DNA of 63,997 bases, filler included, from Elsinoe ampelina (lineage: Eukaryota), in the NCBI GenBank assembly GCA_010093995.1. It is 4 parts of 3 records of this genome, joined end to end, with 100 filler letters (N's around TTAATTAATTAA, not from the genome) between each part and the next. Parts side by side here need not be neighbours in the genome. Positions count along the whole stretch, not along the records: positions 1 to 28,070 come from ML992501.1; 3 more parts are not named here. One strand, given 5' to 3'. The notes beneath the pieces are model-generated. The model saw nothing but the letters and a program-made list of their open reading frames with translations, was not told the origin of the DNA and ran no database searches. Positions 3,166 to 61,210 of the stretch are shown piece by piece. The translations under genes were made by a program, and so were the position numbers. Each line of letters starts with the position of its first letter. Position 1 is the stretch's first letter.

Positions 3166-5298
3166 ATGGCACAACCTCAAGTCAGCTTTTTGCAGACGAA
3201 GCTGAAGCCTGGTAGTTTCTTGGATCGCAAGAGGGAGGCTGTCCGCAAGAACACTCTGCTCTACCAGCTGGACGTCTTGAAGAAGACAGGCCGATATGAC
3301 GCCTTCAAGCTCGAATGGCAGGACGTCTACAAAGACGAGCCAGATCACTGGCCGGTGCCAAATCACCTGTTCTGGGATTCTGACGTTGGCAAGTGGATCG
3401 AAGCTGCAGTATATTTCATCCATGATCAGAAGAATGAAACGATAGAGAAGGCCATTCACGAGCTGGTGGGCATGATTCGGTCAGCCCAGCAAGACGATGG
3501 ATATCTGAACATACACTTCACGGTCGTGGCGCCAAAGGAACGATTCACCAATTTCCGTGACCTTCACGAACTGTACAATGCAGGACATCTCATCGAGGCA
3601 GCAGTGGCTCACCACGACCTTTACGGTAATGACGAGCTCCTTGAGCCCTTGGTCAAGTACGTCGACCTCTTCTGTAAGACCCTTGGTCCAGGCAAGGACC
3701 AGAAACACGGCTACCCAGGTCACCCAGAGATCGAGATTGCTCTCATCCGGCTGTATGAGGTGACCAAGGATTCAAAGCATCTGGAGCTTGCGCAGTACTT
3801 CATCGACGAGCGCGGCAACCCACAGGGTCAAGACGGAAAGCACTTCTACACAGTTGAGGCCGAGGCCCGTGGTGAACGGCCGTACGAACGACCCAACTAC
3901 TACCCACAGCCCAAGTCTTACTGGTACAACACCGCCCACAAACCAATCCTCGAGCAAGACTCGGTCGAAGGCCACAGCGTTCGATCGATGTACTTGCTCA
4001 CCGCGGTGGCAGCTCTGGACAAGTACCGGCAGCGTGAAGACTATCGTGACGCCTTATCACGCTTGTGGAACAACATGGTTGACAAGAAGATGTACCTAAC
4101 TGGCGGCATTGGAGCAATGAAGCAATGGGAAGGCTTTGGTATTGATTACTTCCTGCCGCACAGCACAGATGAAGGAGGCTGCTACTCCGAGACCTGCGCA
4201 GCGATCGGCGTAATGATGCTCGCCGAGAGGATGCTCCAGATCGACCTTGACAGCAAGTACGCCGATGTGCTTGAATTGTGTCTGTACAACTCTATGCTTT
4301 GCGGTATGAGTGTCGATGGCAAACGCTTCACCTACGTCAACCAGCTCGCATCGTCGGATGCAGATCCAGATCAAAAAGCTGCTTGGTTCACTTGTGCATG
4401 CTGTCCCCCCAACGTATCACGAACACTCGGATTCGTCGCTGGATACCTCACAACCACCTCGAAAGATGACGAGAAGAAGACGGCACAGATCAATGTCCAC
4501 GTACCTGCAGCCGGCGTCACCTCCTTGAACGTGGGTGGAAAGAAAGTGGAGCTTGAGGTAGATTCAAACTGGCCGTGGGATGGCTCGGTCAAATTCAGCC
4601 TGAAGGCTTCTGACATCAAGACGGGTATTGCAGTGCGCATACCTGAATGGGCATCATCATCGTACAAGGTATGTCTTCCGCTCCAGAGCCCCCCCTCAAC
4701 CACTAACGAAGCCCAGATCTCGCCCTCAGCCGATTCGAGCAAGGTAGAGAAAGGATACCTGCATCTCAACTCCGACTTCACCGCGTCCAATAGCAGCTTC
4801 ACAATTGACTTCCCCATGACCCCTCGCTTTGTCGCTCCTCACCCCTTTACCAACCAGAACGTCGTCGCTCTCGCTCGTGGACCTCTCATTTACTGCGTCG
4901 AGGATGTCGACAACAATTGGGTAACGGACCACTTTAAGACTCTCCAGCTCAGTGTTCAACCTCAGCCGCCGAAAGTCTCCGAGTCACAGGTCAACGACAA
5001 AGTGACAGGCGAAGACTTCATCATGCTGCACATCGATGAGCAATTCAGCTTTATGAAACTAGGCGAGGTCAAAGCTCCCCATTCCACCGCTCTCGCCGCG
5101 GTGGCTGATATGGGAGGCGGGAAGAAGCCCAGCTTCACTCTGCCGTCGGGTGATGGTGGAACTGTCAATGGTTCGGTCAAAGGCAAGGTGAAGTCTCCAG
5201 ACGGCAAGGAAGTGGAGAAGCTCAATTTTGTGCCTTACTACTTCAGAGCCAATAGGGAGGGCAAGGGTCACATGCGAGTCGGTATCAGAATTGGATAA
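3166..5298 (+). CDS. GH127 beta-L-arabinofuranosidase (DUF1680/HypBA1-like), probably intracellular
   Basis: Motifs FWDSDVGKWIE, HELYNAGHLIEA, GHPEIE, EGHSVR, YSETCAAIG and CACCPPN. Likely in-frame 48-nt intron at 4669-4716 (GTATGT...CTAAC...CAG). Likely start is MAQPQ at 3166, not the ORF-track start at 2950. Confidence 0.93.
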   Translation: MAQPQVSFLQTKLKPGSFLDRKREAVRKNTLLYQLDVLKKTGRYDAFKLEWQDVYKDEPDHWPVPNHLFWDSDVGKWIEAAVYFIHDQKNETIEKAIHELVGMIRSAQQDDGYLNIHFTVVAPKERFTNFRDLHELYNAGHLIEAAVAHHDLYGNDELLEPLVKYVDLFCKTLGPGKDQKHGYPGHPEIEIALIRLYEVTKDSKHLELAQYFIDERGNPQGQDGKHFYTVEAEARGERPYERPNYYPQPKSYWYNTAHKPILEQDSVEGHSVRSMYLLTAVAALDKYRQREDYRDALSRLWNNMVDKKMYLTGGIGAMKQWEGFGIDYFLPHSTDEGGCYSETCAAIGVMMLAERMLQIDLDSKYADVLELCLYNSMLCGMSVDGKRFTYVNQLASSDADPDQKAAWFTCACCPPNVSRTLGFVAGYLTTTSKDDEKKTAQINVHVPAAGVTSLNVGGKKVELEVDSNWPWDGSVKFSLKASDIKTGIAVRIPEWASSSYKVCLPLQSPPSTTNEAQISPSADSSKVEKGYLHLNSDFTASNSSFTIDFPMTPRFVAPHPFTNQNVVALARGPLIYCVEDVDNNWVTDHFKTLQLSVQPQPPKVSESQVNDKVTGEDFIMLHIDEQFSFMKLGEVKAPHSTALAAVADMGGGKKPSFTLPSGDGGTVNGSVKGKVKSPDGKEVEKLNFVPYYFRANREGKGHMRVGIRIG

Positions 5299-19347: not shown

Positions 19348-22300
19348 ATGGACTCTGTCAAGAACTACTTTGTGGGTGGCAAGCCCACACCCGAACAGGA
19401 TAAGGCAGCGAGGAGGGCTAGCAAACGCATGTCTATCAGGCAGAGCCGCCTTTCTGGAGTCCCGTCGACCATCGATGAATCTTCGCCCGCCCAACCCGAG
19501 TTCACCACTTTCGAGTCCTTTGGCCAGTCCATGGCCGAACGGCAATCTTTGCCAAAGTTCGAGCCCACGAACAACCACCGTTTCTCTCGATTCTCTTTCC
19601 TCAGCAATGTCACACAGGAATCCTCGGCAGAAGAGATCGAGGCTGCTAGGAAGTCCTTCCGTATGTCCATGTCCGGCTACTCGAGTAACAACCACAACCG
19701 CAGAACAACAATGTTCACCGATCACTCTGTAATGAGCGATATCGCCGAGTCAGTGGTGGAAGACAGCGTGGCCGGCAGTGACGAAAAGGAAGAGACGAGC
19801 GAAAACATTCTCGACGAACTCAAGCACGAAATCATGGTCAACTACCTTTTCCAACAACAATGTGCACGTCTCTGGATCGCCGACGGGACCGGTGAAGTCG
19901 AAGGTGTGATGCTCAAGAAGAGCAGAGGAAATTACTTGGCCTGTCCGCCGGCTCTCGCAGACTCATTGTTCGCCGACTCTTGCGTCGAGCTGAACGTGCA
20001 GTGTGCCATGACGGTTAACTCGCGTGTCATCAAGACCTTCTTGGCCTGGACGCCGGACGCTATCGATGTGCCCCTCACCAACGGTCTGCGTGTGCAGGTC
20101 TTACCAACAATGGAGGATCTGCCGGCGGCAAAGAAGCATCAGTTCGCCGCTTTCGTGGCCGACGAGGCATTGCTTGTTGTGTGGGATGACGACGTCCATA
20201 ACCTCATCAAGCGAGCGAAATTCATCGAGGATGAGCTGATGGAGCTGGTTTGGTCTTCGGGCGAGGAGGAGCAAGTGGAGGAGGAGGAGGGTGCGAAGAA
20301 AGGCCCTGGCGTTGTGGAGGCGAGATATGATCCTGTCACTGGAGAGGAGTTGCCAGAAGACCGACCCACGAACTTGCAGAACACAGTCCTGGTCTCGTTC
20401 ACACTTGTCATTATTCTTGGCCTTTTGGGTGCCGGTTTCCGTCAAGTGGCTATCGAGATCTCCGTCGACTACAACTGGTACCGTCTGTTCTTCTTCCTCC
20501 TCACACCCGTCCAGGTCTTCTTCACATTGGTAAGTCGGACCTACAGCCGATGGCTAGCGAAGCTGACCATCACAGTTCTTCGCCCAGGTTATTGTTGGAT
20601 GTACCGCACAAATCATCGGTCCCATCAAGCAAGTCACCTCAAACTCCCGATTCTACTCCGCCCTGCTTCCTCGCCGCATCACGCCAAAAGACGGCGAGCC
20701 GCTTCCCCATGTCACTATCCAATGCCCTGTGTACAAGGAGGGTCTTGAGGGTGTGATTGCCCCCACCGTCAAATCTGTCAAAGCCGCCATGTCGACCTAC
20801 GAACTTCAAGGCGGCTCCTGCAACATGTTATTCCACGACGACGGTCTCCAACTCATCGACGAAGAAGAACGCAACGCTCGCATCGACTTTTACACCGACA
20901 ACAACATCGGCTGGACCGCCCGTCCCAAGCACGGCTCCGAAGGCTTCGTCCGCAAGGGTAAATTCAAGAAAGCCTCCAACATGAACTTCGGCATGATGGT
21001 ATCCTGCAACGTCGAAGCCAAGCTAGAAAAAATCGACCGCCACGCCAACTGGAACCAGAACGACGAGGCCGAAGCGTACGGTACCGCACTTCAAGAAGTC
21101 CTCGACGAACACGGACGCGCGTGGGCCGACGGCAACATCCGCATGGGCGACTACATCATCATCATCGACTCGGACACCCGTGTACCAGAAGACTGTATCC
21201 TCGACGCCGTCTCCGAGATGGAGCGCTCCCCTTTCGTCGGCATCATGCAGTTCTCCTCCGGTGTCATGCAGGTCACATGGACTTTCTTCGAAAACGGCAT
21301 CACTTACTTCACCAACCTGATCTACTCTGCCATCAAGTACACCGTGGCCAACGGTGACGTGGCGCCTTTCGTCGGTCACAATGCGATTCTCAGGTGGCAA
21401 GCCATCCAGCAAGTCAGCTACTTCGACGAGGACGGGTATGAGAAGTTCTGGGCAGAAAACACCGTGTCCGAGGACTTCGACATGTCTCTCCGTCTGCAGT
21501 GTAACGGGTATGTCCCCCTTTCCCCTTCTCCCTCCCTCGCTACCCCATAGGTCTCCGCTAACAATCCCAGCTACATCATCCGCCTCGCCGCCTGGGCCGG
21601 CGAAGGCTTCCAAGAAGGCGTGTCGCTCACCGTGTACGACGAACTGGCTCGCTGGGAGAAATACGCCTACGGATGCAACGAGCTGCTCTTCCAACCGCTC
21701 TTGTACTGGTTCACGCAGGGACCGCTCACGCCGCTGTGCAAGGAGTTCTTGTTCTCGCAGATTCGTATGACTTCGAAGATTACGATCTTGTCGTACATCG
21801 GCACCTACTATGCTATTGGAGCTGCTTGGATTCTCACGCTCGTTAACTACTTTGCTATTGGTTGGTTCAACGGGTATCTCGGTATGTGCACAGGGAATGA
21901 GTGGGTGGAATTGAGCTGACGATCTGGCAGACAAGTACTACCTCGACTCCTGGAATGTGTGGTTCGGTCTCGTCATCGTCTTCGTCGGTCTCGGAAACGT
22001 GTCTCTGGCTGTCATGAGATATCGTATCGGCGAGGCTACGCTGATTGGGTCTTTCCTGGAGAACATCAAGTGGATTCCTATGTTCGTTGTTTTCTTGGGT
22101 GGTCTCTCTATTCATGGTAAGTCAAGCCTTTCTACTCTTCCGAAGGACGAATCTAACGTCGCAACAGTCTCTCAAGCTCTACTGTCGCACATGTTCATCT
22201 GGGAGGTACGTCATTCCGCCCTCGTCGTCGCCGCTGGTCGGGGTCGGCTTCCATGCCTTCCCCGGCCACCACCGACCTCAAAACTTGATCTAGAAACATG

Positions 22301-22672
22301 CTAACATGCTCAGATGTCCTGGGGCAGCACGGTGAAGGAAGCGGCGTTCAGTAATGCCCGTGCGTTTAATCATATCAACCTTGTCCTGAAATTGCTCACT
22401 GCAGCTCCGGAAAGGTCCCCCCCTCGTTTGAACTTCTACTGACACTCTCTGCAGTCATCGAGCTTCAACTGATCTGGGGCGGATACCGCAACACCCTTTT
22501 CATATCGGTACTTTGTCTCTCTTGCATGTTGATCCTCGGAACCGCCTCCTTTGTACCCTACGACTGGAAGATCAACTCCTTCTTGGCTTGGTGGCCCATG
22601 CTGTCTTGTTGGATGTCGCATCTTCTGTTGCCCATCGCGTTGAACCCAGCGCTGATGACCTTCTCCTTCTAA
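19348..22672 (+). CDS. Processive GT2 glycosyltransferase (multi-TM glucan synthase-like), about 7 exons
   Basis: Motifs KKASNMN, IIDSDTRVP, VGHNAILRW, VSEDFDM and ELARWEKYAYG (ExxRW). The spliced model ends ...LLPIALNPALMTFSF* at 22672. Confidence 0.92.
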
Positions 22673-23297
22673 GCGATCCGGAGAGTCCGGTATCGACTTT
22701 GATGTGTTTTTGCACGGGGTGGCAAATTTTTGCTATCCGGGTGGACGCCAAGCCTTACGACGCCAACGAGCTGTCGAGGGCATTCTTTCCTTTGTCAGAA
22801 CAAGCATCATATCATGTACATATAGACAGAGAGCACTGTAGAGCGTCTTGTAAGACTACTACCCAGATCATGCATATCGAGGTTTCCGACCTTTCACAAC
22901 AGTGCAAGCATACGCAGTTCCTGTGATACCGTGCTGGTTTGAACTGACTATAAAACCATCACTGAAAATCCAGTGAGCCAATCACAATTACCTCTGCCGC
23001 CACGATTTGCTGCTCGGTATAGTCAGCCTTACAGAGTGTAACTGCAGGTGCCAAGGGGGCTGCAGTGCCACGGAACTACCTAGCAGTCAGAAGCATATCA
23101 CCGAGCAAGTCTCTTAATATGCCATCGATGAGATACGCATGTGAGTCTGAGTAGAAGATAAGCTATGTAAGGAAGATGCATTGACATTGTGGCTGGGAAG
23201 GCGCTTGTATCTGATCATGTTCGAGGAGACTACTTTCCGCTCCCAGTAGATTCTGCCACGGTGATAGTACCGCCGGCTGTCAATTGTATGTCGTGCC

Positions 23298-25717
23298 TCA
23301 TGATCTCCGGGCTCTCTGCCCCGCCGACGCCGCACAAGCTCTGCAGTAGAGTCCATCATCTTTGGCAGCAAATTTTCGGACTTGTGGCTCATTAGACCTC
23401 GTCATTTTTTCCTCCACGCCGATGCACCCGTCGACTAGACCTGCGTCACAATGTACATCCGCCCCTGCATTGCGAAGCAGATTTGCAGCTTGATGGACCG
23501 CTAGAGATGCTGACGAGTACTTGTTGCTTTTTTCTGCATCCCGACAGTAGACACAGCGATACTCCGAACCGACCAGCATGATACTCATCTTTGCTGGCAA
23601 CAGAAAGTAAAAGCTGATGTAGCACACTGAGCATAGAATGGGTTTGAGAAGCTCCCCAGTTGGGTCTCTCTTCGCGGCGTCCAGTTTCGCCTCTGCTTTT
23701 TTTCGCTCCAGAGCAGTCTTGTCGTCATTTAGGGCGGGCTTACGGCGCGCATGATCCCGATAGTGTTCCCGACAAGTGTAACACAGCACCTTTAACTCGT
23801 CTTTGTGCCGCTGCACAACATACCAACGCTTCTGTTTGGTTCCCTTCGGCTCCTGTTCTTCGCAACGCTGACAAATAGGATATTCGCCCTTATCACGATT
23901 GTCTCGGAGACTTTGTTGCGCTGCCAGAAGAGCGACTTCTCCCTGTGTGGGCAGTTCTTTGTGATGCTCATACCATGACCCACATCGGGTGCATAGATGG
24001 TATTGATTGTCTTTTGATAGAACGTGGGATCTCGATATGTTCCGATCCCAATAGGCCAAGGATTCTTGAATGCCGCAATTGTCACATTTGGCGTTATGAC
24101 CCTTGGTGTCGCGAACCATACCGTAGTGATCCGTACGGTCGATTTCTGCACGAGTTGGTAGAGGTTTTCCTTGTGACAGGTGCTTGTAGCAGTTCCGACA
24201 GTAGTAACCCCCAAGTGGATTCCCATTGTGTGCCAGATAGCGCTGAGCTCCACCCGTAGGCATTGCTGTCTTGGGATGTGTGTCGTGTGGACATTCCGAA
24301 TTTTGGCAGGGCTGAATCGTTTTGGCAAGCTCATTGTTGAAACCCTGACTGAGTTGAAAGGCATTGTTGGTCCCTTCCCAGAAGACTTGCGGAAATCCTG
24401 CTGTACGACGTACCTCGTCCACCATGTCGTAGATGAACTTCATGCGGAATGGGGATGACCATTCGTGACGCTCGGGGTTTTGGAAGCCATGGTCGATGAT
24501 CGTCCAGAAAGCTTCCAAGAGACGAAGAAAGCCGTCCGCGATGCCGACCGGTGGTATGCATAACTCGACAAAGCGTGCCTCAGCGTCGTTCCGATCGAAC
24601 CAGCGATAGACGCGGAACGTCTGTTTTTGCAAGCGAATGCTAGCCTCATGTGTCACCTGACGACCGTTATTCCTCGGCATAGTCGATCCATCGTGTGCGG
24701 AAAACTCAACGCCATCCATCCAGATGTTGGAGAGGAACTCGTCGAGCAAGCCATCGATTTCTCCAGACTCAGATCGGATGCCGAGAATCTTGTAGGCTAC
24801 AGGTCCGACCAGAGTACGATCCGTCCAGAAGCTGTGATCACGGTACAGCCTTGCAAGCCATTGGCGATCGAATGCCTCCGCACCATACTTCTCTTGAATG
24901 CCCGCGGGAGTAGAGCCGATGAAGAGACGGAAGAAAAAGTCTGGGTCAGTCATACCGAATAATGCCCAATAAGCGAAAGTAGCGAGCCGTTGATCTTCCG
25001 GCAGATCCCTCAAATCCTTGACAGACGTGACACGCCTGAACAGAGTCGTAATTCCCACTAAACACTTGGCTCGGAATGCGTTCACCGCTGGGTTATTGGT
25101 CTTCATATCGACGTTCGGTGGCGACTTCCAGTCCCATGTAGGTAGGTCTCTTGCGGCTTTCCAGGTCCAATTCCTGACGACTGAGGGGTGTGGTATTGTC
25201 GGGGTCATCAGAGTCTGCATGTTCCGGGACGTACTCTGCATCTTCGATGAGCTGCAGCTTATCCCTCCGTCCGTTCAGCTCAAGGCCTTCAACTCCGACT
25301 ACAGGCGCTCCAGCGTCTGACGCGTTTTTGTTGGTATCGCTGACAGAGACCGGCGACTCTGTCCCGTCCAGCAAGTCTCCGTTGCTTGTTCCGATGAGGC
25401 TGTGAGTGACTTGGTCGATGGTGAGTGTGCTGCTGGGTGAGACGAATCGCGGTCTCTTGCCGGAAGTGATGCTGTCATCCTACAGAGGGTCAATTTATGA
25501 CCGGGTCTACTTTGATAGAATGGCATACTGAAGGTCTAATCGCTTCTTCGGTGGTAGTACCAGCGGGGCTGCTCACGGACGACTGCAAAATTTGCAGCTC
25601 TGTCTGTGAATCCACTTCCTCCAAAACTGCTGCTGTCCTCTTTGACCGTCGTTTCTTCTTTCCTGTCTTGACGTGCTGCGATCGGACGCGTATCCTCCCT
25701 CCATCTGGCATGGACAT
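23298..25717 (-). CDS. Putative GIY-YIG-like endonuclease with five C2-C2 zinc-finger-like repeats; basic NLS-like N-terminus
   Basis: The 647-aa ORF (23298-25241) has VAY..HDGST..GRQVTH..LLEAFW..GTN followed by five paired Cys-knuckle repeats. An upstream exon (KTGKKKRRSKR) joins via a canonical 49-nt intron at 25480-25528. Joining to the long ORF needs a +1 shift or a 61-nt intron at 25174-25234. Confidence 0.6.
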
Positions 25718-26571
25718 GATCGCGTGATTGATGTGTACAGAATGTCGACGAAGAACAAGGTGCTGACAGCCAGCAGGAAGGAAAGGGAAGTGGACAAGAT
25801 TTCTTTCGCCAGAATGTGAACTCCAAGTTTGCTGGTTTCACCTTGTCGCGGGGCAAGCACATGTCGACCGCCGCATCACTATCATCCCGCGGCTCGGGGG
25901 CAGGACAAACGACCACACCCTCATTCGCTTTGAAAGATGCAGGCATGCCAATTTAAAAAATGTGCCGACGCGGCTATATCCAGGACGATAGGAGTGACCA
26001 GAGCAAGACAGGGCCATGGCTTTCTGGTCCACGAGTCATCCTCATCACCATCGTTAGCTCCATATTCTGAGGTCACTTCAGCTAACAGATGTGACCTACC
26101 TATCACTCCACTATTCCCTTCGCGGGCAGCTGGCGACGACGCGCAGAACGCGCTGTTGGTGTGGCGAGCGAGCATGGCCAATATCACATTGAGGGCTGTA
26201 CAGCCCACCAGTACAAGTCGCGTTCATCGCAATCCTCTTCTGGGGCGCTTTCTCTGTATGACAGCGACCAAAGATGTCACTGCTTCTCTACGGCACGTGG
26301 CACGTTGACCAGCAGCGTTGTGGCTTTCCTCCACGACCTGCGGCTAAATGGTCCTGAGGAAAATCGTCCATTCGATCCATTTCCTGAGTGCCAGAAATCG
26401 AAGCAGCAAGCTAAGCTGACAAGCTTCACAGTAAGATCAGGAGCGGTGCACAAAATATCCAGCAATCTGGAGGCTTTTGTTCGAGAGAGAAGTGCGCGTT
26501 GTGGTGGACATATGATTAGCCCGCTAACCACATTCAGTATAGCTCTGCCGCATACCGACTGCCGTAAAACT

Positions 26572-29181
26572 TGTTGTAATGGAAGGCTGGTACAGCTTCT
26601 CTGGTACAGCTTCTCTGGTACTGATGAGTCAGCGCACGCACAGTAGATAAATCGGTTATTGTAACTCTCTAAATGAAACACACGTCTCTCGATCTGATTT
26701 GCTAGTTATAACAGGTTATAAGCCCGGCGCTTCTATAAAAGCACTTAAAGCTATAGTAAATTAAGCATGTTATTATTAAAAGGATTACTAAGCCGCCTAC
26801 ACTAAATTCTAGACTAGCTATATTAAGATAAACACTTATAGTAGCCCGTATTAACCCTTTAATTAAACAGTTTAAACGGCTTAAACAAGCTAATTACATT
26901 AATTAAATTAATAGGCCTTTAGCTAATTACTATTATTATGTCTAGATTAGCAAAAATGCTCGAGACTTAGATTCTTAAGAGAGAAAGTAACTATAATACT
27001 TAAAGATTAACCCTTAAGGTAGCCCTCCTTAAAAAGAATATACTTAGATATGCAATTTATAACATTAACTAGATACTAGCAGTTATAAAGCCTAAAGAAC
27101 TAGCCCTAGATACTAGTAAAGGCACTAAGGCAATCTATAAGGTTAGGAATAAGACCTAGTATAAGAATAATAGAATTACTTATAGTATTATTATAATAAG
27201 GATTTATAAATCTATTAGACCTTACTATAGTATAACTTAGAAGACTTTAAAGGAACTTCTAGACACTATTAAAGCTATATTTAAACCTGTTGTTTTATAT
27301 AAGCTATATATAGCTATCTATAACCTTAATAAGGTAATTATAACAAGTTATAACACCTAAAGGTACTATAAAGATTTTATAAAGTACTATTATTAATATA
27401 CTATTACTATAGAGCAAAGAGTAAGCACTATTAGTACTAAACTAAATAAGTTTAAGCTCCCTCTATACTATATTAAGACTATGTTTATTATAGGAATAGA
27501 GACTACTAAATAGTTAAGGAGCTAGAGATCTAACCTTAACTATAAGAAGAGTCTTAAAGAGATAATAGACTCTCTTAGAATATAGAAGCCCCTATATAAT
27601 AGAAGAACTAATCTAAACCCTATTTATAGAGTAGCTAGTTATATTAAGGACTAATACACTTAGTATACTTATTATATCTACTCTAATATAGATTACTTTA
27701 AGTAGTACCCTAAGAAAGTACTAAAGAGTTAAAGTAAAAGGAATAACAAAGATAAGTTAAATAATAAAGGCATAAAGGCTAAAGGCAAAGGTAATAAGTT
27801 AAAGACTAAGAAAGTTAGAGGTTAAGTAGCTATTTAAGAATCTAAAGAACTTACTAAGGTAGGTAAATTAGATAAATGCTCTAACACTAATGTTAATATT
27901 ATTATACTAGTCTATAGAGTAGTAGTAGTGTCTATATTATTATCCTTAACCTATAGCAAGAATAGAGTAATTTATAACTCTAGTGTGTTAAGGCACTTTA
28001 TTAAAGACAGGTTATAGTTCTTAATAATTAAAGTATATAAAGGTGTTCTTAAATTTAAATAAGCTATTAGNNNNNNNNNNNNNNNNNNNNNNNNNNNNNN
28101 NNNNNNNNNNNNNNTTAATTAATTAANNNNNNNNNNNNNNNNNNNNNNNNNNNNNNNNNNNNNNNNNNNNATTAGTGCTATAGTAGACTACTCTACTAGT
28201 AGCACTAGAAGCTATTAAAGCAGTAGAGTAGTTAGTAGATCTAGTAAGGTTAACTTACTTAGTTAGATCCTTAACTAGAATAGAATTAGTAACTACTAGA
28301 TATACACTACAGGTACTAAAGGCCTAGACTACTATAGACCTCTAAACAGAATATAAGTTAGCATAGTTATAATAACTAATTATCCTAAGCCTAAGGAGAG
28401 TATTCTAGATTATATCGGCTAACTATTAAGTTAAAGTCTAAGTTAATTAGGCTATTAATGTTAGCTTATGCTATTAATGCTTTATAGCTACTTACTAAGA
28501 GTATTAAGATAAGTAATTAGTCTTATAGTAGTATTATAATTAACATTAGAAGTACTAGGTAACCTTAATAGAGGATTTCTCTTCTTACTACTACCTCCGC
28601 TACCTAGTAAACTACTTAGAGTACTAGCACTAGTAGTAATGCTACTAATGCCTAGCTGTTACTACACTATAGCGCTTATGTTATAAGTGTTATTAATGTA
28701 GTATAGTAAGAAGATAAAAGTGTTATATAAAAGAAAAGGCTACTACTATAAGTATAATAAAGGAAAGAGAAATTATAAAGAGGCTAGTTAGATACTTATA
28801 TCTCTTTAATTAAGACTTATAAGCTAGTCTATTTACATAAACAATAGCTGCCTAGCTATTATTAATAGTTACTATTATTGCTAGCAATTATAAGCTAAAC
28901 TAATAGTAAATTCTCACTAATAATTAGCTAACACTAACAATTATAAGTAATTATAAAGAGATAAAGTAATAAGCTAATCACTTTACTTACATGTAATAGG
29001 ATAGTTCTCTAGCTTTAGTAATCTATACTAGAGAGGGAGTGTTATAATAGAAGGCTAGTATAGCTTCTCTAGTACTAAAGAACTGGTACTGATAAGTCAG
29101 CACACGCACAGTAGATAAATTGGTTATTGTAACTCTCTGAATGAAACACACGTCTCTCGATCCGATTTGCTAGTTACAACA
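26572..29181 (+). mobile_element. RIP-inactivated Ty1/copia LTR retrotransposon with both LTRs (26572-26713, 29040-29181) and TSD AAACT; interior collapsed at an assembly gap
   Basis: AAACT flanks both ends (26567-26571, 29182-29186). PBS GGTTATAAGCCCGGCGC follows the 5' LTR and a PPT precedes the 3' LTR. Reversing RIP restores a gag zinc-knuckle-like stretch (~27660-27720) and the protease motif IYDSGASRHF (~27970-28000). Confidence 0.95.
28071..28170. other. Scaffolding gap with artificial six-frame-stop linker (N44-TTAATTAATTAA-N44); the same at 58607-58706 and 61111-61210
   Basis: An identical 100-nt pattern occurs three times, always inside repeats. Confidence 0.95.
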
Positions 29182-51789: not shown

Positions 51790-54145
51790 AGCCTCTATAA
51801 GCTTAACAAAGAGTAATCTTTAAGGAGTAATAACTTTATGAATTAGTCCCCTTTTAAGCTGTAAATTAGTAGAGGATAAAGCTAAGGTTAAGCGCTTTTA
51901 ATTAATATAGATATTAATGAATTTTATTATAAGTTTATATAAGGTTAGTAAAACTTCTTAAAACACTTATCTCGAACATAGAGTAGTTTATTACACCTTA
52001 AATAAATTCAATTAGTCTTATATATATACTCTTTAACGCCTTAAATATAAAGCTAGTAGTAGTAATAGTAATATATAATAGATAAGGCTATAGTTATTTA
52101 GTAACTATAAGGCTAGAGGAGGCGCTCTAGTAGTAGCTTAGTATTCTTAGTAATATAGCCTCGGTAGTGTAACTTCTTTAAATTGCTAACTATAACCTCT
52201 CTAGCTCTTACTCTTCTTTATATTATATTAGGAGGTTACTTAGCATCTATAAGCCTTACTCCTTTAACAAGTAAAGCTTAAGCTAATTAATAGTAAAAGA
52301 GGTAGTAAATAGTATAGTAGCTATACTTAACTCCGTCGCTAAAGAGCTAAGTAAATATCTAAAAGGCGTTAATAATAGAGCACTCTAATAGCTAGAAGAA
52401 GAGTAGTATCTAATTGTATAAGACTCTTAATTAGAGTAAATATAATACTCTATATTAATTAGTAATATCTACCGCTTCTATAAAGTAATTATATCTAACT
52501 ACTACTACTAGTAATTAAAGTACCTTCTCTATAGCCTTACTCTATATACTTTACACTTGCTCTTTAAACTATCTATCTTAATAGTATATAGCCGGCCGCT
52601 ACTAGATAGCCTTAATAAGCTTATAAGGCTTATAAAGAGTTATAAGGAAGTATACTAGGAGGCGGTCTTACTATAAAATTAAGTAAACTAAGTTATCTAT
52701 CTAGAGAGGTAAAGTAGTAGTATATAAGGTTATTTAGGAGCTTAAGATTATACTTAATCTGCCCTATTTAAGCTATAACTTCTTCTTATTAATCCGGCTA
52801 TACTCTTTTAGATAGAACTTCGAGGTTAGCCTTATAGTACTAGTAGCGCTAATACTAAGTCTTTAGAGGCTAATAAAGAGTAGTATATTAGAGAAGAGAT
52901 TATTATAGAATAGAGAGAACTAGTAGCAAATCCTTAGTAGTTGCTATACTAAGTAAATTACTACTTATAAGGTTTATAATAATTTAATATTACTTACCTC
53001 TAAGGGCTTAGTTACTAGAAGGCTATAATATAAAGTAGAGCGACTTATAAAGAGAAATATAAAGGTATAGCTACATTTATAGAGTAATAATATCTTATAT
53101 CCTTATATAATTAGCTTATTCTTTATTAGGTAAGTATACTTTAATCTTCTAGTAAATTGTACTATAGTCTTATTAATAGTAACCTCTATAGCTAGTATAA
53201 TATATAACCTCTAGCGCTCTCTAAGATACTTCGCTAACTTCTTTACCTTATTAAACATAGACTACTATTATAGTAAATTTACTAGAAGAAGATCGTTATA
53301 GATATAAAAGAAGCGCTTTAACTACTAGAAGTAATTAAGTAAGAAATATTAACTAATAAGGTGTTAAGGCTTCTATATATTACAACTCTAGTACTCTATA
53401 ACTAGCGACTATTAGTATAGGCTAAAGTAGATAATTTACACTAGCTAGATTATTAGTTTACTCTTCGAAGTTAGTTTCTACTTCCTTAGCCTCTTTATAG
53501 ATTTAGTTAGTACTCTAGCACCTCTTAAAGCTACGTATTAGTTAGTGTAATTAGTAAGATACTTAAAGAGCTAGTCTATAAAGAAGAGCTAGAATAGGAG
53601 GAGTAGCTAGTTATCTTTATCCTCTACTTCTAAGCCTTTAGGTAGGTGTAATTCTCTATCTTTATAATTAATCTAAATTAGCTTAAAGGCTAGCTTATTA
53701 TCTAGTAGATTATTTGTCCTTATAACCTCTAGTACTAGTATAGCCTCCTTAGCCTTCTCTTTCTTCTCTAAGGCTCTAACTTCTTTATATATCTCTAAGT
53801 TAACCTTATTCTCTACCTTAGAGCTAGTATAATCCTCTATAGTTATACGCTAGAAGGCACTACTAGGAGAATTATAAGAGCTTAGAAGTAGTAGAGGAGT
53901 AGAGGCGAACTATATATAATAGCCCTTATTAGTAGTAGCTATAGCAATTCTTATTACACCTTTAAAAGCTTAATATTATAAAGTTATAGCCTTTTCTACA
54001 TCTTTATAGCACTAATAGTAGTAAAGAATATTAAATTCATAGCTAAGTCTACTAATTACTTCGATTTTAGTAAGTATTACTAAGAAATTAGAGTCGGCTA
54101 TGTCTAGCGCTAAAACTAGCTAAAAATTTTTACTAGATTAGGGGA
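51790..54145 (-). mobile_element. RIP-destroyed piggyBac DNA transposon (DDD transposase relic); ends approximate
   Basis: Reversing RIP on the minus strand gives IDETMVQFTGRS..KNKP..GYK (~53100-53177), DNLFS (~52890-52910), LGIGATGTVR (~52830-52860) and YN.FMGAVDIADQYR..W.PLFFWLL (~52385-52495), i.e. all three catalytic-Asp motifs in order. Confidence 0.85.
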
Positions 54146-57100
54146 TGTTATAACTAGCAAATTAGATTAAGAGACGTATATTTTATTTAGAGAATTATAA
54201 TAACTAATTTATCTACTATATATGTACTAACTTATTAGTGCTAGTTCTTTAGTACTAGAGAAGCTATACTAGCCTTCTATTATAATACTCTCTCTCTAGT
54301 ATAGATTATTAAAGCTAGAGAACTATTCTATTATATATAAGTAAAGTAATTAGCTTATTACTTTATCTCTTTATAATTGCTTATAATTGTTAGTGTTAGC
54401 TAATTATTAGTAAGAATTTACTATTAGTTTAGCTTATAATTACTAGTAATAATAGTAACTATTAACAATAGCTAGGTAGCTATTGTTTATATAAATAGAC
54501 TAGCTTATAAGTCTTAATTAAAGAGATATAAGTATCTAGCTAGCCTCTTTATAATTTCTCCTTTCTTTATTATACTTATAGTAGTAGCCTTTTCTTTTAT
54601 ATAACACTTTTACCTTCTTACTATACTATATTAATAACACTTATAACATAAGCGCTATAGTATAGTAATAGCTAGGCATTAGTAGCATTACTACTAGTGC
54701 TAGTGCTCTAAGTAGTCTACTAGGTAGTAGAGGTAGTAGTAAGAAGAGAAATTCTCTATTAAGGTTACCTAGTACTTTTAATGTTAATTATAATACTACT
54801 ATAAGACTAATTACTTATCTTAATACTCTTAGTAAGTAGCTATAAAGCATTAATAGCACAAGCTAACATTAATAGCCTAATTAACCTAGACTTTAACTTA
54901 ATAGTTAGCCGATATAATCTAGAATACTCTCCTTAGGCTTAGGATAATTAGTTATTATAACTATACTAACTTATATTCTATCTAGAGGTCTATAGTAGTC
55001 TAGGCCTTTAGTACCTATAGTATATACCTAGTAGTTACTAATTCTATTCTAGTTAAGGATCTAACTAAGTAAGTTAACTTTACTAGATCTACTAACTACT
55101 CTACTACTTTAATAGCTTCTAGTGCTACTAGTAGAGTAGTTTACTATAGCACTAATTACTATACTAAGTATTAGGGATCTAACTCTAGTAATAATTAGAG
55201 TAAGGGTAGGGGTAGCAAGTTTAGTAAGTATATTACTTTGCCTAGTTAGCTTAATAAGGCCTATACTTGCTATACTTATAGCAACTAATATACTAGATGT
55301 TCCTTAGCTAACTATACTCTAACTCTAAGGCCTATTAGCTCTCCTAAACCTATAAGGACCCTAAGTAGCTTAAGGGTTATTACCTAGTCTATTCTATATA
55401 GCCTAATACACCTACTAATAGAGCTTCTAAGGTCTGTCTCTTTTAGTAGTACTTTGCCTTAGAAGTTCTTACTAAGGGCCTATATACTAGAAGTATTATT
55501 AGATGTAGTTAATACTTTAATAACTTATACTAACTCTTACTACTTTATAGTAGTCTCTATAAACTTTATAGATCCTACTAACCTAACTGCTACTAAGGTT
55601 TATAACTTAGCTACTATAGTAATAAACTATATAATAGAGCTTATAAGAATTATAGCTACTAGCTACTCTAGTTAGCTTTCTCCTATTTATGCCTTTATAC
55701 TAAGCCTAGCGCTAATAAGGTATAGTAGGTCTAGATCTAATACTTCTATAAGGTCTACTAGTAGTAATAAGAGAAGAGGTTCTCCTTCTATAAAGAAGTA
55801 ATTAAAGGTAGGAAATAGATAAGGATTATTAAAGGTAATAATAGTACTAAGTAGTAGATATAGCTTAGGCATAAGTAGCTAGTAATAGAGTTATAATAGC
55901 TTTTCCTTTCTCTCTTCTTAATAATAAAGTAATTTACTTTAAGCTTTAGACAAATAAGATAGCTTAATAAGTAGTAGTAGTATAAATAATATACTTAAAA
56001 TAATAATATATATAAAATCTAAATAAGTATATAGCGTAGATATACACTAAGTAATTAGCCTTTACTAATTAATTAAGGATCTTATTAGGAGACTTAGGCT
56101 TTATAAGTATATTAGCTAATTACTAAGTTATATTAATATACTTAAGCTTAATTACTCTAAGTTTATACTACTCTCTATAGTAGTAATTCCTTAGATTAAT
56201 ATACTTAGATCTCCTTAAGTTAGTATAATCTCTTATAAGTTTAATAGCTAATTTATTATTAATAAAGACTATAGTTAGACTAAGGTAGATATTAGTAAGT
56301 AGCCTAAGTTTAATAATAAAGTTTCTTAACTAATTAATCTCTCTATAGGTCTTAGTAAGGGTAAGGTATTTAGCCTTAGTGCTTAATAATATAATAATCT
56401 TCTATAGCCTTAACTTCTAAATAACTAGTACACTAAGTATATAAATAATAGTACTAGATATAGATCTTGTAGTTAATCTATCTCTAGTAAAGTCTAAGTT
56501 AGAGTAGGCTTTAATTATATTAGCTAATAGTTTATTAGTCTTCCTAAAGGTAAAGCCCTTTATAATAGTCCTATTAATATACCTCTAGATCTATTTAGCT
56601 ATAACTACATAAGCTATAGTTAGATTCTAAAGGAACCTAGCTAGGTAATTAGTAGTATAGCTAATATTAGGCCTTATATTATTAGCTAGATATTATAATT
56701 TACTAATAATTCTATTAAATGTCTTATAGTACTAAGTATTAACTTAGCTATTAGTTAGTTTATAGAGTTAATTAATAGGATACTTTATAGTTCTTACTTA
56801 GTAAAGATTATAACCTTTAAGCTTCTCCTTAAAGTAGTGTAATTACTTAATCTTAATTAAGTCCTTAGTTCTATAAAGTTAAACACTAAGGAAGAGGTTT
56901 AAGTTTATAATCTTTATTAGAAACTTAAGATAAAGATCTTTAACTAGCTTATCTATATACTTCTACCTAGTAGTAATAATCCTAAAGTTATTAATATATA
57001 TAAGAACTATATAATACTTATTAATAAAGAGACAAGTATTACTATAGAATCTAATAAAACTAAGTAATAGAAGTGCCTTAACTATAGTGTTATACTAGAG

Positions 57101-58606
57101 AGTAGTAGCTTACTTAAGCCTATATAAGCCCTTTATAAGAATAATAAGCTTGTCCTATTTACTAGAAATTAGTACGCCTTCTAGGCAGGAGATATAGTTC
57201 TTAATATTAATATCTAGTCTAAGGAATATAGTAACTATATCTACTATTATAATAACCTAGTTATAATAAAGAGTATATACAAGGATTACTCTCCTAGTTT
57301 TAGCTCTTAGTATTAGTATAAAGGTTCTAACAAAGTTAATATCTACTCTTTAAGTAAAGCTCCTTATAGTCTAATAAGCCTTATATCTTTTAACTTTGCT
57401 ATTTATAAGCCTCTTAGTCTTAAAGACCTATTTGCCTATTATTAGCCTAACACCTCTTAGTGCCTATAATTTCTTAATAATTAAAAAGGTTTTAGAGTTA
57501 GTTAGAGCTTTCTACTCTATCTCTATTATAGCTTACTAGTAATAACCTTTAGGAGAGAATAGTATATCTCTTACTATTTATAGGTCTAGCTTAAAATTAA
57601 TAGCTATAGATCTAATAATCTTACTATTATTAAGTTTTTTATAATTAATCTAGCGATATGTTTTAAGAGACCTTCTAATAGTTTCTTATAGTAAGAGAGA
57701 TCTTTTCCTTTTACTAGTTAGAGGTTATATATTAAATAATATAATAAGAAAGTTAACATCCTTATTCTATATATATATTAGTAGTTAATTAACATTAACT
57801 ATAGGATCAAAGGTTAAATATAGTTTACTAATAACTTTAGGTAGTAGTATTATAAGGTCTTTACTCTTATAGTTAGTAATAACAAGTTACTTCCTCTATT
57901 TATTAATAGGTTAAGGATTCTGTTTAGGATATTAGTATTACTCTCTCTATTCTTTAATAGGGGTAGATAATTGTTATTTATATCTAAGGATTAAAGGGTA
58001 GTTAGATGTTAGTTATTTAGCTTAAGGTTATTTAGCCTAGGTAGTTTATAGATTCTTATAACTAAAGGGTAGTTAATTATAGCTATAGTCTTAATTATAA
58101 TCGCTACTAAATGTCCGCTCCCCTTAAAGCTATAAAGCCTTAGGTTGTTATATCTATAGGATATATAGCTATTTAATGACTTATATTACTTAGTCTTTAT
58201 AGACTATGTCCTTATTAAATATTACATAGAGTAATATAATAATCTTTCCCTTCTAGGCTTACTAAGTATAATACTAATAAGGTATCTAGATAAGGTAATT
58301 AGTTATTAAGTCATTCTATATACTAACATACTAACTAAGTAGTACTTTAGCTTAGAATTTATATAATTTAGAAACATATTAGTTATAGATATAGGCTCTA
58401 TAGCTAAAGCGTCTAATATAAGTTAATAAGACTAGCCTATTATTATTAAGAAGATTCTTTCTTAGCTCTTATATAGAGATCTTCTTAGTTTTAGTATAGG
58501 TAATTCTATTACTAATATAGATTATAAACTTTATAACTATATACTAGAGTTTAAGAGGTACTCTATAATTAATAAAGATATATCTTATTCTAAGAATAAT
58601 TACTTT
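54146..58606 (-). mobile_element. RIP-inactivated Ty1/copia copy: 3' LTR (54146-54287), PPT, long 3' region, RNase H and RT
   Basis: The reverse complement matches the LTR and 3' region at 28171-29181, and the RT/RNase H relic matches 62600-63997. Confidence 0.92.
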
Positions 58607-58706
58607 NNNNNNNNNNNNNNNNNNNNNNNNNNNNNNNNNNNNNNNNNNNNTTAATTAATTAANNNNNNNNNNNNNNNNNNNNNNNNNNNNNNNNNNNNNN
58701 NNNNNN

Positions 58707-61110
58707 AACTATATAAGCTATAGTTAGATTCTAAAGGAACCTAGCTAGGTAATTAGTAGCATAGCTAATATTACGCCTTATATTGTTAGCTAGATATTAT
58801 AATTCACTAATAATTCTATTAAATGTCTTATAGTACTAAGTATTAACTTAGCTATTAGTTAGTTTATAGAGTTAATTAATAGAATACTTTATAGTTCTTA
58901 CTTAGTAAAGATTATAATCTTTAAGCTTCTCCTTTAAGTAGTATAATTACTTAATCTTAATTAAGTTCTTAGTTCTATAAAGTTAAACACTAAGGAAGAG
59001 GTTTAAGTTTATAATCTTTATTAGAAACTTAAGATAAAGATCTTTAACTAGCTTATCTATATGCTTCTACCTAGTAGTAATAATCCTAAAGTTATTAACA
59101 TATATAAGAACTATATAATACTTGTTAATAAAGAGACAGGCATTACTATAGAATCTAATAAAACTAAGTAATAGAAGTGCCTTAACTATAGCGTTATACT
59201 AGAGGGCAGCAGCTTACTTAAGCCTATATAAGCCCTTTATAAGAACAATAAGCTTGTCCTATTTGCTAGGAATTAGTACGCCTTCTAAGTAGGAGATATA
59301 GTTCTTAATATTAATGTCTAGTCTAAGGAATATAGTAACTATATCTACTATTATAATAACCTAGTTATAATAAAGAGCATATACAAGAATTACTCTCCTA
59401 GTTTTAGCTCTTAGTATTAGTATAAAGGTTCTAACAAAGTTAATATCTGCTCTTTAAGTAAAGCTCCTTATAGTCTAATAAGCCTTATATCTTTTAACTT
59501 TACTATTAGTAAGCCTCTTAGTCTTAAAGACCTATTTGCCTATTATTAGCCTAACACCTCTTAGTGCCTAAGATTTCTTAATAATTAAAAAGGTTTTAGA
59601 GTTAGTTAGAGCCTTCTACTCTACCTCTATTATAGCTTACTAGTAATAACCTTTAGGAGAGAATAGTATATCTCTTACTANNNNNNNNNNAGCTATAGAT
59701 TTAATAATCTTACTATTATTAAGTTTCTTATAATTAATCTAGTAATATGTTCTAAGGGACCTTCTAATAGTTTCTTATAGTAAGAGAGATCTCTTCCTTT
59801 TACTAGTTAGAGGTTATATATTAAATAGTATAATAAGGAAGTTAATATCCTTATTCTATATATATATTAGTAGTTAATTAACATTAACTATAGGATTAAA
59901 GGTTAAATATAGTTCACTAATAACTTTAGGTAGTAGTGTTATAAGGTCTTTACCTTTATAATTAGTAACATTAAGTTACTTCCCTTGTTTATTAATAGGT
60001 TAAAGATCTAGTTTAGGATGTTAGTATTGCTCCTTCTATTCTTTAATAGGGGTAGATAATTATTATTTATATCTAGGGATAGAAGGGTAGTTAGATGTTA
60101 GTTGTTTAACTTAAGGTTATTTAGCCTAAGTAGTTTATAGATTCTTATAACTAAAGGGTAGTTAGTTATAGCTATAGCCTTAATTATAATTACTACTAAA
60201 TGTCTACTCCCCCTAAAGCTATAAAGCCTTAGGTTGTTATACCTATAGGATATATAGCTATTTAATGACTTATATTGCCTAGTCTTTATAGACTATATTC
60301 TTATTAAATGTTATATAGGGTAATATAATAATCTTTCCCTTCTAGGCTTACTAAGCATAATACTAATAGAGTATTTAGATAAGGTAATTAGTTGTTAAGT
60401 TATTCTATATACTAATATACTAACTAAGTAGTACTCTAGCTTAGAATTTGTATAATTTAGAAACATGTTAGTTATAGATATAGGCTCTATAGCTAAAGCG
60501 TCTAATGTAAGTTAATAAGACTAGTCTATTATTATTAAGAAGATCCTTTCTAAGCTCTTATATAGGGATCTTCTTAGTTTTAGTGTAGGTAATTCTATTA
60601 CTAATGTAAATTATAAACTCTATAACTATATACTAGAGTTTAAGGGGTACTCTATAATTAACAAAGATGTACCTTGTTCTAAGAATAACTACTTTATTAG
60701 TGGCCTTAGATTTACTATTCTAGTATTAAGTATTAGGTGTAGAGATGTTCTATCTCTACTCTTTAAGATAAATAGCTATTGCTAGTTTATAGTTCCTAAA
60801 TTTACCTCCTCTATTAGAGATAAAGATAAATAAAAGCTTATTATAGGCTATTTTATTCCTTATATAGATAAGTTTAATTACTACTAGTATATTACTCTTA
60901 AGAAAGAGAATAGTAATAAACTTATATTTACTTTTACTATATATTATAAGGAGAAGGTATTTATAGCCCTTACTTAACTATAGTTTAATAGGACTAATAA
61001 GGTCTAGATAGAGCTTATCTAGTAAGTATTTTAGTATATCCCTTAGTTCCCTTAACACTACTCTCTATGTCTTTAATATAGTATATAGTTTATAGTAGCT
61101 AAGATCTAAT
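58707..61110 (-). mobile_element. Second copia pol fragment (RT to integrase), RIP-mutated
   Basis: Repeats ~56605-58606 with mostly transition differences and extends further toward the integrase. Confidence 0.9.
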
Positions 61111-61210
61111 NNNNNNNNNNNNNNNNNNNNNNNNNNNNNNNNNNNNNNNNNNNNTTAATTAATTAANNNNNNNNNNNNNNNNNNNNNNNNNNNNNNNNNN
61201 NNNNNNNNNN

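Follow-up and report, generated by a model that had tools for sequence, protein, structure and literature searches.

What kind of protein does a fungal chromosomal gene encode when it joins the motifs of a nuclease to a row of cysteine knuckles, and what could such a protein do in the nucleus? The question is raised by a locus of the grapevine fungus Elsinoe ampelina, a Dothideomycete of the Pezizomycotina, situated in a stretch of 63,997 nt from assembly GCA_010093995.1 (four parts joined end to end by filler; here called the window, along whose full length all positions are counted). A first-pass annotation proposed that an open reading frame (ORF) at 23298-25241 on the minus strand encodes a GIY-YIG-like endonuclease fused to five zinc-finger-like repeats. 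The ORF is present as described, with 647 codons (1,944 nt) and no internal stop, and both the GIY-YIG assignment and the architecture of a nuclease followed by a finger array are supported by our analysis. Beyond this, we hold with moderate confidence that its product is a modular DNA endonuclease or nickase that acts in the nucleus and belongs to a so far undescribed family found in filamentous ascomycetes. What the first reading overlooked is that the gene, judging by sequence searches, is one member of a whole family and not a one-off.

Gene model and transcription

The ORF corresponds to residues 145-769 of an annotated hypothetical protein of E. ampelina with 769 amino acids (P0002), with 100% identity over 96% of the length. 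The annotated gene extends beyond the ORF of the first-pass annotation, which has to be corrected by the addition of two upstream exons, and the three exons joined give the exact P0002 sequence. The gene model consists of the following parts:

23298-25717, minus strand: full annotated coding region (exons 25717-25529, 25479-25235 and 25173-23298; ATG at 25717, stop codon at 23300-23298)
25529-25717, minus strand: exon 1, holding a basic KTGKKKRRSKR stretch that resembles a nuclear localisation signal
25480-25528, minus strand: intron 1, 49 nt, GT..AG, spliced out in contigs of runs X1 and X3
25174-25234, minus strand: annotated intron 2, 61 nt, GTACGT..CAG, kept in the sole contig that spans it

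Judged by composition alone, the KTGKKKRRSKR stretch looks like a nuclear localisation signal, and the family consensus has a comparable KRxRR followed by an acidic tract.

Contigs from four public runs (X1-X4) were placed on positions 23200-25800. The runs are not recorded as RNA, and the gaps that X2-X4 leave in the coverage of the gene carry no information. A contig of 2,668 nt from X1 spans the whole of 23200-25800, extends some 60 nt past either boundary and is missing precisely the 49 nt of intron 1, while a 175-nt contig from X3, a separate study, has the identical junction. Because the missing stretch begins with GT and ends with AG when read on the strand of the gene, as at a splice junction, the contigs were read as RNA, and the gene is transcribed.

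The X1 contig is continuous from 23200 to 25478, so it retains intron 2, and it is the only contig across that junction. Translation of the retained form gives an upstream product of 190 amino acids, with a stop ahead of the nuclease. Such a transcript would be expected if the gene were decaying or non-productive, that is, transcribed into mRNA mostly unable to make the nuclease. On the other hand, the 1,944-nt ORF is free of stops, and all 20 finger cysteines together with six of the seven catalytic-motif residues are kept at 44% identity to the protein of Elsinoe batatas, which argues for purifying selection. Assembly into contigs also loses minor isoforms, and a form with intron 2 spliced out may exist; alternatively, the 647-codon ORF may be translated from an ATG of its own. 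We consider decay of the gene decidedly improbable. As an observation in its own right, the removal of intron 1 together with the keeping of intron 2 may mean that retention of the intron is regulated, or else that the gene model is wrong.

A family in filamentous ascomycetes

An exhaustive phmmer search of 1.84 billion representative sequences returned, the query included, 62 proteins at an expect value (E) ≤1e-3, 37 at E ≤1e-10 and three at E ≤1e-30, with divergence down to 20-30% identity. Organism names were obtained for 13 of the 30 representatives looked up, and a further search supplied nine more names; the remaining members come from metagenome or run assemblies. The named members come from Elsinoe batatas (twice), Sphaceloma murrayae, Emmonsiellopsis, Arachnomyces, Paecilomyces variotii, Talaromyces proteolyticus, four Aspergillus species, Parastagonospora nodorum and Botrytis cinerea, to which the further search adds A. 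fumigatiaffinis, A. udagawae, A. turcosus, A. niger, Alternaria alternata and Dendryphion nanum. We take all of these organisms to be Pezizomycotina, i.e., filamentous ascomycetes. Nearly all members are labelled as hypothetical; one UniRef name starts with 'GIY-YIG' and another is 'GATA-type domain-containing protein', so automatic annotation has reached two of them. No description of such a fungal family was found in the full-text collection searched, whose coverage leaves out most subscription journals.

Other searches returned less. With Pfam, the window protein gave no match, the best being an unrelated finger model at E 0.03, and phmmer of the single protein against sequences of the PDB found only a peroxide regulator (E 0.19). 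A word-indexed homologue search with the ORF recovered only the protein itself, one of 6,509 candidates; repeated with a 43-sequence alignment, it scored 8,000 candidates and returned two proteins, which is uninformative, and the exhaustive phmmer search was preferred. A metagenome scan yielded three loci with homologues. Motif-limited scans found no relatives among 45 pattern matches in viral contigs and none among 37 in prokaryote genomes, but such scans detect only relatives that keep one or two short motifs, and absence from these groups is not implied.

Several individual members deserve a remark of their own. E. batatas has a second, truncated paralogue (P0004, 362 amino acids), whose match to the window protein is confined to residues 28-211 and which stops within the nuclease domain and may be a decayed duplicate; the longest contigs of P0004 and of the full-length E. 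batatas protein are of equal length and were taken as the same contig. The source record of the S. murrayae protein (P0006) calls it 'Proteasome activator complex subunit 4', which looks like an annotation error, given its alignment with the present family of GIY-YIG and finger proteins. Repetitive, variable N-termini are a feature of the family: in one metagenome locus (L001, positions 3389-3642), the N-terminal acidic region of the homologue contains four tandem units with a 72-nt period, encoding Asp/Ser-rich and Pro-rich repeats.

The GIY-YIG nuclease domain

The part of the protein that precedes the fingers is divided as follows (residues are numbered along the ORF):

24807-25064, minus strand: helical N-terminal extension (residues 60-145), with helices at model residues 2-77 and a conserved consensus upstream of GIY
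24357-24806, minus strand: GIY-YIG core (residues 146-295), with Y150, H183-D-G185-S, R194, H198, E243 and N292

All the strings on which the first-pass annotation had based its assignment are in place within the core (VAY150KI, SAH183DGST, GR194QVTH198E, FVEL, LLE243AFW and EGTN292N), and its numbering of Y150, R194, E243 and N292 is correct. Across the family, the consensus reads R.GIY...Y[VI]GS...R...H...S.HY...GYL.LLEG...W.G.NAAWPL.QGF and thereby follows the motif order of the superfamily, GIY, YIG, Arg, Glu and Asn, as given in PMC1564403 and PMC3045582.

Conservation was counted in alignments of 43 and 61 sequences, with the sequences aligned at a given column as the denominator. The count for the GIY tyrosine comes from the 43-sequence alignment only, because MAFFT, in the larger one, set the GIY strand of three Elsinoe proteins apart in columns of their own. 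This tyrosine (Y150) is conserved in 37 of 37 sequences, the YIG tyrosine in 48 of 51 and the YIG glycine (G185) in 50 of 51. The arginine (R194) is kept in 51/53, the histidine four residues further on (H198) in 47/51, the metal-binding glutamate (E243) in 54/55 and the C-terminal asparagine (N292) in 59/60, while the spacing between the YIG position and the arginine is 10-11 residues in nearly all relatives. The four residues that the first-pass annotation had singled out are thus conserved among homologues. Strict conservation of catalytic residues in a family diverged to 20-30% identity argues that DNA cutting would be the function under selection.

The predicted fold is likewise that of a GIY-YIG domain. 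An AlphaFold2 model of residues 60-400, built with the 61-sequence alignment, reached a mean predicted local distance difference test (pLDDT) of 89.2 and a predicted template modelling score (pTM) of 0.86. Behind the helical N-extension it follows the order strand-strand-helix-helix-strand-helix-helix, with the three-stranded sheet flanked by helices that is characteristic of the GIY-YIG fold. In a structure comparison, the best relative of the nuclease model was a homing endonuclease, well clear of the next rows. These were T4 EndoII (4.4), R.Eco29kI (4.2), the N-domain of AtGRXS16 (4.0), a row that we take to be PD-T4-3 (4.0), the N-domain of UvrC (3.7) and HIGLE (2.6), so that other GIY-YIG proteins occupied ranks 2-5, 8 and 15; EndoII, Eco29kI, UvrC and HIGLE are named in the rows themselves, and AtGRXS16 was assigned through a reference title. 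Foldseek against BFVD gave named matches that were nearly all GIY-YIG or homing endonucleases, mostly of phages, at weak scores (best E 0.025, none ≤1e-3). Among Pfam families, PF01541 was the commonest in the relatives at a lenient threshold (9 of 61 at E ≤1, best 0.0012). Its gathering score of 22.6 bits was not attained, with no match on the window protein and with 13.9 and 11.4 bits for the two members that have bit scores. NUMOD and helix-turn-helix domains were found neither in the window protein (Pfam, E ≤10) nor among the 25 commonest of the 46 families recorded for the 61 relatives (E ≤1).

The zinc-finger array

Twenty of the 22 cysteines lie within the last 336 residues and make up ten knuckles in all, which pair as five units:

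24144-24308, minus strand: finger 1 with LPTRAE tail (residues 361-366); C312, C317, C348, C351; the most conserved finger
23937-24086, minus strand: finger 2 with LPTQGE tail (residues 430-435); C386, C389, C417, C420
23772-23873, minus strand: finger 3; C457, C460, C487, C490
23544-23633, minus strand: finger 4; C537, C540, C563, C566; hydrophobic loop YISFYFLL, kept with the four cysteines in E. batatas
23334-23450, minus strand: finger 5; C598, C606, C633, C636; atypical first knuckle C-x7-C

The five pairs and the LPTxxE tails on the first two agree with the first-pass annotation. The cysteines of the leading fingers are conserved at C312 in 60/60 sequences, C317 in 58/60, C348 in 54/56, C351 in 53/56, C386 in 53/54 and C389 in 51/52; since the same positions recur in homologues, the cysteine units and the motifs are more than a product of chance. 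For finger 5, strands and a helix appear at residues 325-347 of the model, and the E. batatas alignment stops inside the unit. The later fingers vary in number across the family: behind the nuclease there are anywhere from 0 CxxC motifs, in fragments, to 17, which we translate into some two to nine fingers for full-length members. For finger 4, the possibility that its hydrophobic loop conceals an intron was considered and ruled out, given that E. batatas keeps the loop and the transcript contig is unspliced there.

The GATA-like spacing that had been attributed to the fingers holds only in part. A canonical GATA finger has the form C-x2-C-x17-20-C-x2-C. The loops between the knuckles of fingers 1-5 comprise 30, 27, 26, 22 and 26 residues, respectively, which is longer, and fingers 1 and 5 open with knuckles of the form C-x4-C and C-x7-C, respectively. 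Likeness to GATA fingers is suggested by profile and fold, at weak scores: among PDB sequences the family profile picks out GATA-3 (E 0.0034) and GATA-1 (E 0.0063), each by its double fingers, and PF00320 (GATA) is the second commonest Pfam family in the relatives (6 of 61, weak). The model of residues 300-647 (pLDDT 86.5, pTM 0.56) indicates confident units with a loose mutual orientation. A modelled unit consists of a knuckle, a hairpin and a second knuckle that runs into a helix, with a long linker helix behind it, and the finger of AreA superposes on the model with a root-mean-square deviation of 2.3 Å over 42 of 42 residues. From these models we read the five units as treble-clef Cys4 fingers, closest to GATA/AreA, with weak scores and longer loops. 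In the model with a pTM of 0.86, finger 1 and the nuclease form a single body, and this finger may fix how reader and cutter are placed relative to each other.

Alternatively, some of the fingers could be zinc-stabilised HNH (beta-beta-alpha-Me) modules, which would make this a protein with two nucleases. Finger 2 of many relatives carries H..LP...LC..C, and some have C..CH. However, this histidine is present in only about a third or more of the sequences, finger 3 has no conserved His or Asn, and the sequence profile matches GATA and not HNH. Moreover, treble-clef fingers and HNH cores are structural look-alikes, and the fold by itself does not decide between them. HNH modules are extremely unlikely in our estimate.

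Proposed mode of action

The reading that we prefer, that of a modular endonuclease or nickase, would arrange the protein from the N- to the C-terminus as a disordered N-terminus with the putative nuclear localisation signal, a helical extension on an I-TevI-like GIY-YIG core, and an array of five fingers with helical linkers. We infer a zinc-binding reader of DNA and a cutter acting together in the nucleus. The finger array would bind a long DNA site, and the tethered GIY-YIG domain would hydrolyse a nearby phosphodiester bond through the one-metal mechanism of the superfamily. Tyr150 would serve as the general base, the role of the GIY tyrosine in the catalytic scheme given in PMC3045582, Arg194 and His198 would position the water and the phosphate, Glu243 would hold the metal, and Asn292 would provide structural support. 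Such a mode of action would parallel that of I-TevI and of engineered fusions of I-TevI with zinc fingers.

Several results weigh against this reading. Neither the window protein nor any of its relatives scores above the cut-off of a Pfam model. Foldseek against the PDB returned no match at E ≤1e-3, with Slx1 at the top (E 0.35) and Eco29kI also listed, and the family profile matches the sequence of I-TevI at only E 1.1. The finger loops of 22-30 residues depart from the canonical GATA spacing. His183 replaces a residue that is tyrosine in 48 of 51 relatives. Since the only contig spanning the 5′ part keeps intron 2 with its early stop, production of the full protein is uncertain, and the full-text literature searched yielded no biochemical data on any member.

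Divergence of the E. ampelina copy

The first-pass annotation had called the YIG motif degenerate. The alteration is confined to the tyrosine, with Gly185 retained: the window protein alone among 51 aligned has histidine at this position (His183, codon CAC at 24693-24695), and the E. batatas protein has tyrosine. The E. ampelina protein is divergent in other respects as well. It is only 44% identical to that of E. batatas, and the insert between the first two strands (beta1-beta2) has 33-34 residues in the two Elsinoe proteins (33 in the window protein) as against 13-21 in most relatives. In a FastTree phylogeny of those 52 sequences, out of 61, that covered 75% or more of 219 columns, midpoint-rooted and read for its topology without branch supports, the window, E. 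batatas and Sphaceloma proteins form one long-branched Elsinoaceae clade.

These features would also fit a DNA-binding regulator of transcription or chromatin acting through its fingers, with the nuclease weakened or dead in the E. ampelina lineage, similar to the plant EFFECTOR OF TRANSCRIPTION (ET) proteins. The Tyr-to-His change, the long E. ampelina/E. batatas branch and the enlarged insert all agree with this possibility; a language-model atlas lists a plant 'EFFECTOR OF TRANSCRIPTION 2-like' cluster as a weak neighbour (score 0.76), and the architecture has a precedent in ET proteins as described in PMC6585611. On the other hand, all other catalytic residues are intact (Y150, G185, R194, H198, E243 and N292), the atlas score is below the level that is meaningful for the tool, and the Pfam model of the ET-type GIY-YIG domain, PF19239, was not reported for the seven proteins scanned (E ≤10). 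Furthermore, Hpy188I is active with a natural lysine at the position of the YIG tyrosine, where the role is hydrogen-bond donation to the scissile phosphate (PMC3045582), so that histidine may be tolerated and, by analogy, could plausibly fill this role. A regulator with a weakened or dead nuclease seems doubtful to us, yet with a real share of the probability. Cleavage by the E. ampelina protein itself is likely but, on account of His183, uncertain, and activity may be kept or weakened.

Relation to known GIY-YIG systems

To our knowledge, nuclear eukaryotic settings of the GIY-YIG domain are few, namely Slx1, ANKLE1/LEM-3, Penelope retroelements and the plant ET proteins. In Table 1 of a superfamily census from 2006, the eukaryotic nuclear groups are Slx1, COG3680/ANKLE1 and Penelope, with no fungal finger-array family among them (PMC1564403). 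A nuclear fungal I-TevI-like domain followed by a variable Cys4 array would add a new setting to these.

A close parallel in design is I-TevI, in which a monomeric GIY-YIG head likewise stands N-terminal to a modular DNA reader. The window protein differs from it by the additional helical N-extension, by the 33-residue beta1-beta2 insert and in sequence, as the profile score given above indicates. In contrast to the GIY-YIG homing endonucleases of phages and organelles, the window gene is nuclear and chromosomal, with spliceosomal introns, and its protein has five GATA-like Cys4 fingers in place of NUMOD or helix-turn-helix domains. The fingers themselves resemble those of GATA1/3/4 and fungal AreA in their four cysteines and in the helix and tail to which the second knuckle leads. 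In our view, the C-terminal half of a GATA finger is also recognisable in the family consensus LC..C..[YF]...G.LP.

Plant ET proteins share the architecture, with a GIY-YIG domain and Cys-rich DNA-binding repeats, and are described as plant-specific in PMC6585611. The ET repeats were compared by description only, and convergence is possible; PF19239 went unreported on the window protein and six relatives (E ≤10), where the filters of HMMER may hide very weak matches. Slx1, the top non-significant Foldseek match, is a structure-specific nuclease and likewise a eukaryotic nuclear GIY-YIG protein followed by a zinc-binding domain, a finger of RING/PHD type. According to Table 1 of PMC1564403, Slx1 is without the C-terminal Asn and carries a single C-terminal RING-type finger, and on both counts the window protein differs from it.

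Finally, I-TevI placed N-terminal to zinc fingers gives working monomeric nucleases whose target is set by the binding module, according to PMC5751168. These Tev-ZFE fusions resemble the window protein in tethering a monomeric GIY-YIG domain N-terminally to a target-setting finger array; they are artificial and use C2H2 fingers, whereas the window protein is natural and has Cys4 fingers. The family could be seen as a natural counterpart of the engineered Tev/zinc-finger nucleases and, if active and sequence-specific, would offer a monomeric nuclease scaffold that is compact and has a modular reader. One may also ask which sequence of its own genome such an enzyme cuts, and with the unique Tyr-to-His change nature has provided a simple experiment on what the YIG tyrosine does.

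Distribution and genomic surroundings

The first-pass annotation had entertained a selfish, drive-like nature of the gene. According to this explanation, alleles without the gene would be cut by the nuclease at the insertion site, and the gene would then be copied in by repair, which would give a patchy, mobile distribution. The best structural relative of the nuclease is indeed a homing endonuclease, and the BFVD matches are mostly phage homing endonucleases. The family consists of small, scattered clusters, mostly with a single member, Aspergillus proteins fall into at least three separate clades of the tree with long branches, and the number of fingers is highly variable. Such features, together with the modest identity between the two Elsinoe proteins, point toward conflict biology.

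A repeat adjacent to the gene could be taken in the same direction, and it agrees with the earlier remark that the gene adjoins a transposable element insertion:

26615-29181, no strand assigned: dispersed repeat outside the gene, degraded by repeat-induced point mutation (RIP), GC content 18-32%, with direct repeats of 99-142 nt at its bounds

The block begins about 0.9 kb upstream of the ATG and has a clear RIP bias (TpA/ApT 1.97; (CpA+TpG)/(ApC+GpT) 0.30). Further copies occur at 54146-55156 (94% over 1,011 nt) and 1-316 (95%), the bounding direct repeats differ mostly by transitions, and the block could be a solo or degraded long terminal repeat element.

The gene itself, on the other hand, is without RIP-type bias (TpA/ApT 0.54) and has spliceosomal introns. 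Neither terminal repeats nor transposon genes were seen around it or around two homologue loci, L001 and L002; the two metagenome contigs that bear these homologues each have a single intron-less ORF, and the neighbour in L001 is an ABC-transporter fragment. The three Elsinoaceae proteins cluster together in the tree described above, as expected of vertical descent, and the P. nodorum cluster, which occurs on 17 contigs, probably represents separate isolates. In this lineage, the single clade, the introns, the lack of repeat boundaries and the freedom from RIP point toward an ordinary host gene, and none of the tests lent support to the selfish reading; we regard homing or drive as unlikely. 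We give an equally low probability to a broader proposal, in which the family would be natural 'zinc-finger nucleases', I-TevI-like domains aimed by an evolvable GATA-like array, serving either as nuclear selfish homing/drive genes or as sequence-targeted nucleases of genome defence. The patchy spread and the fast divergence make a conflict-related role, selfish or defensive, worth testing.

On the downstream side, the neighbour is a DUF7928/GT2 glycosyltransferase gene at 19.3-22.3 kb (window 19348-22304), split over several ORFs and probably containing introns. Within the AT-rich repeat upstream of the gene, a near-perfect palindrome occupies 28062-28179, with overlapping 65-nt arms that are 94% complementary. 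At the far end of the window, about 12 kb (52000-63997) with a GC content of 24-29% and a RIP-type bias (TpA/ApT 1.90) look like an AT isochore of degraded repeats.

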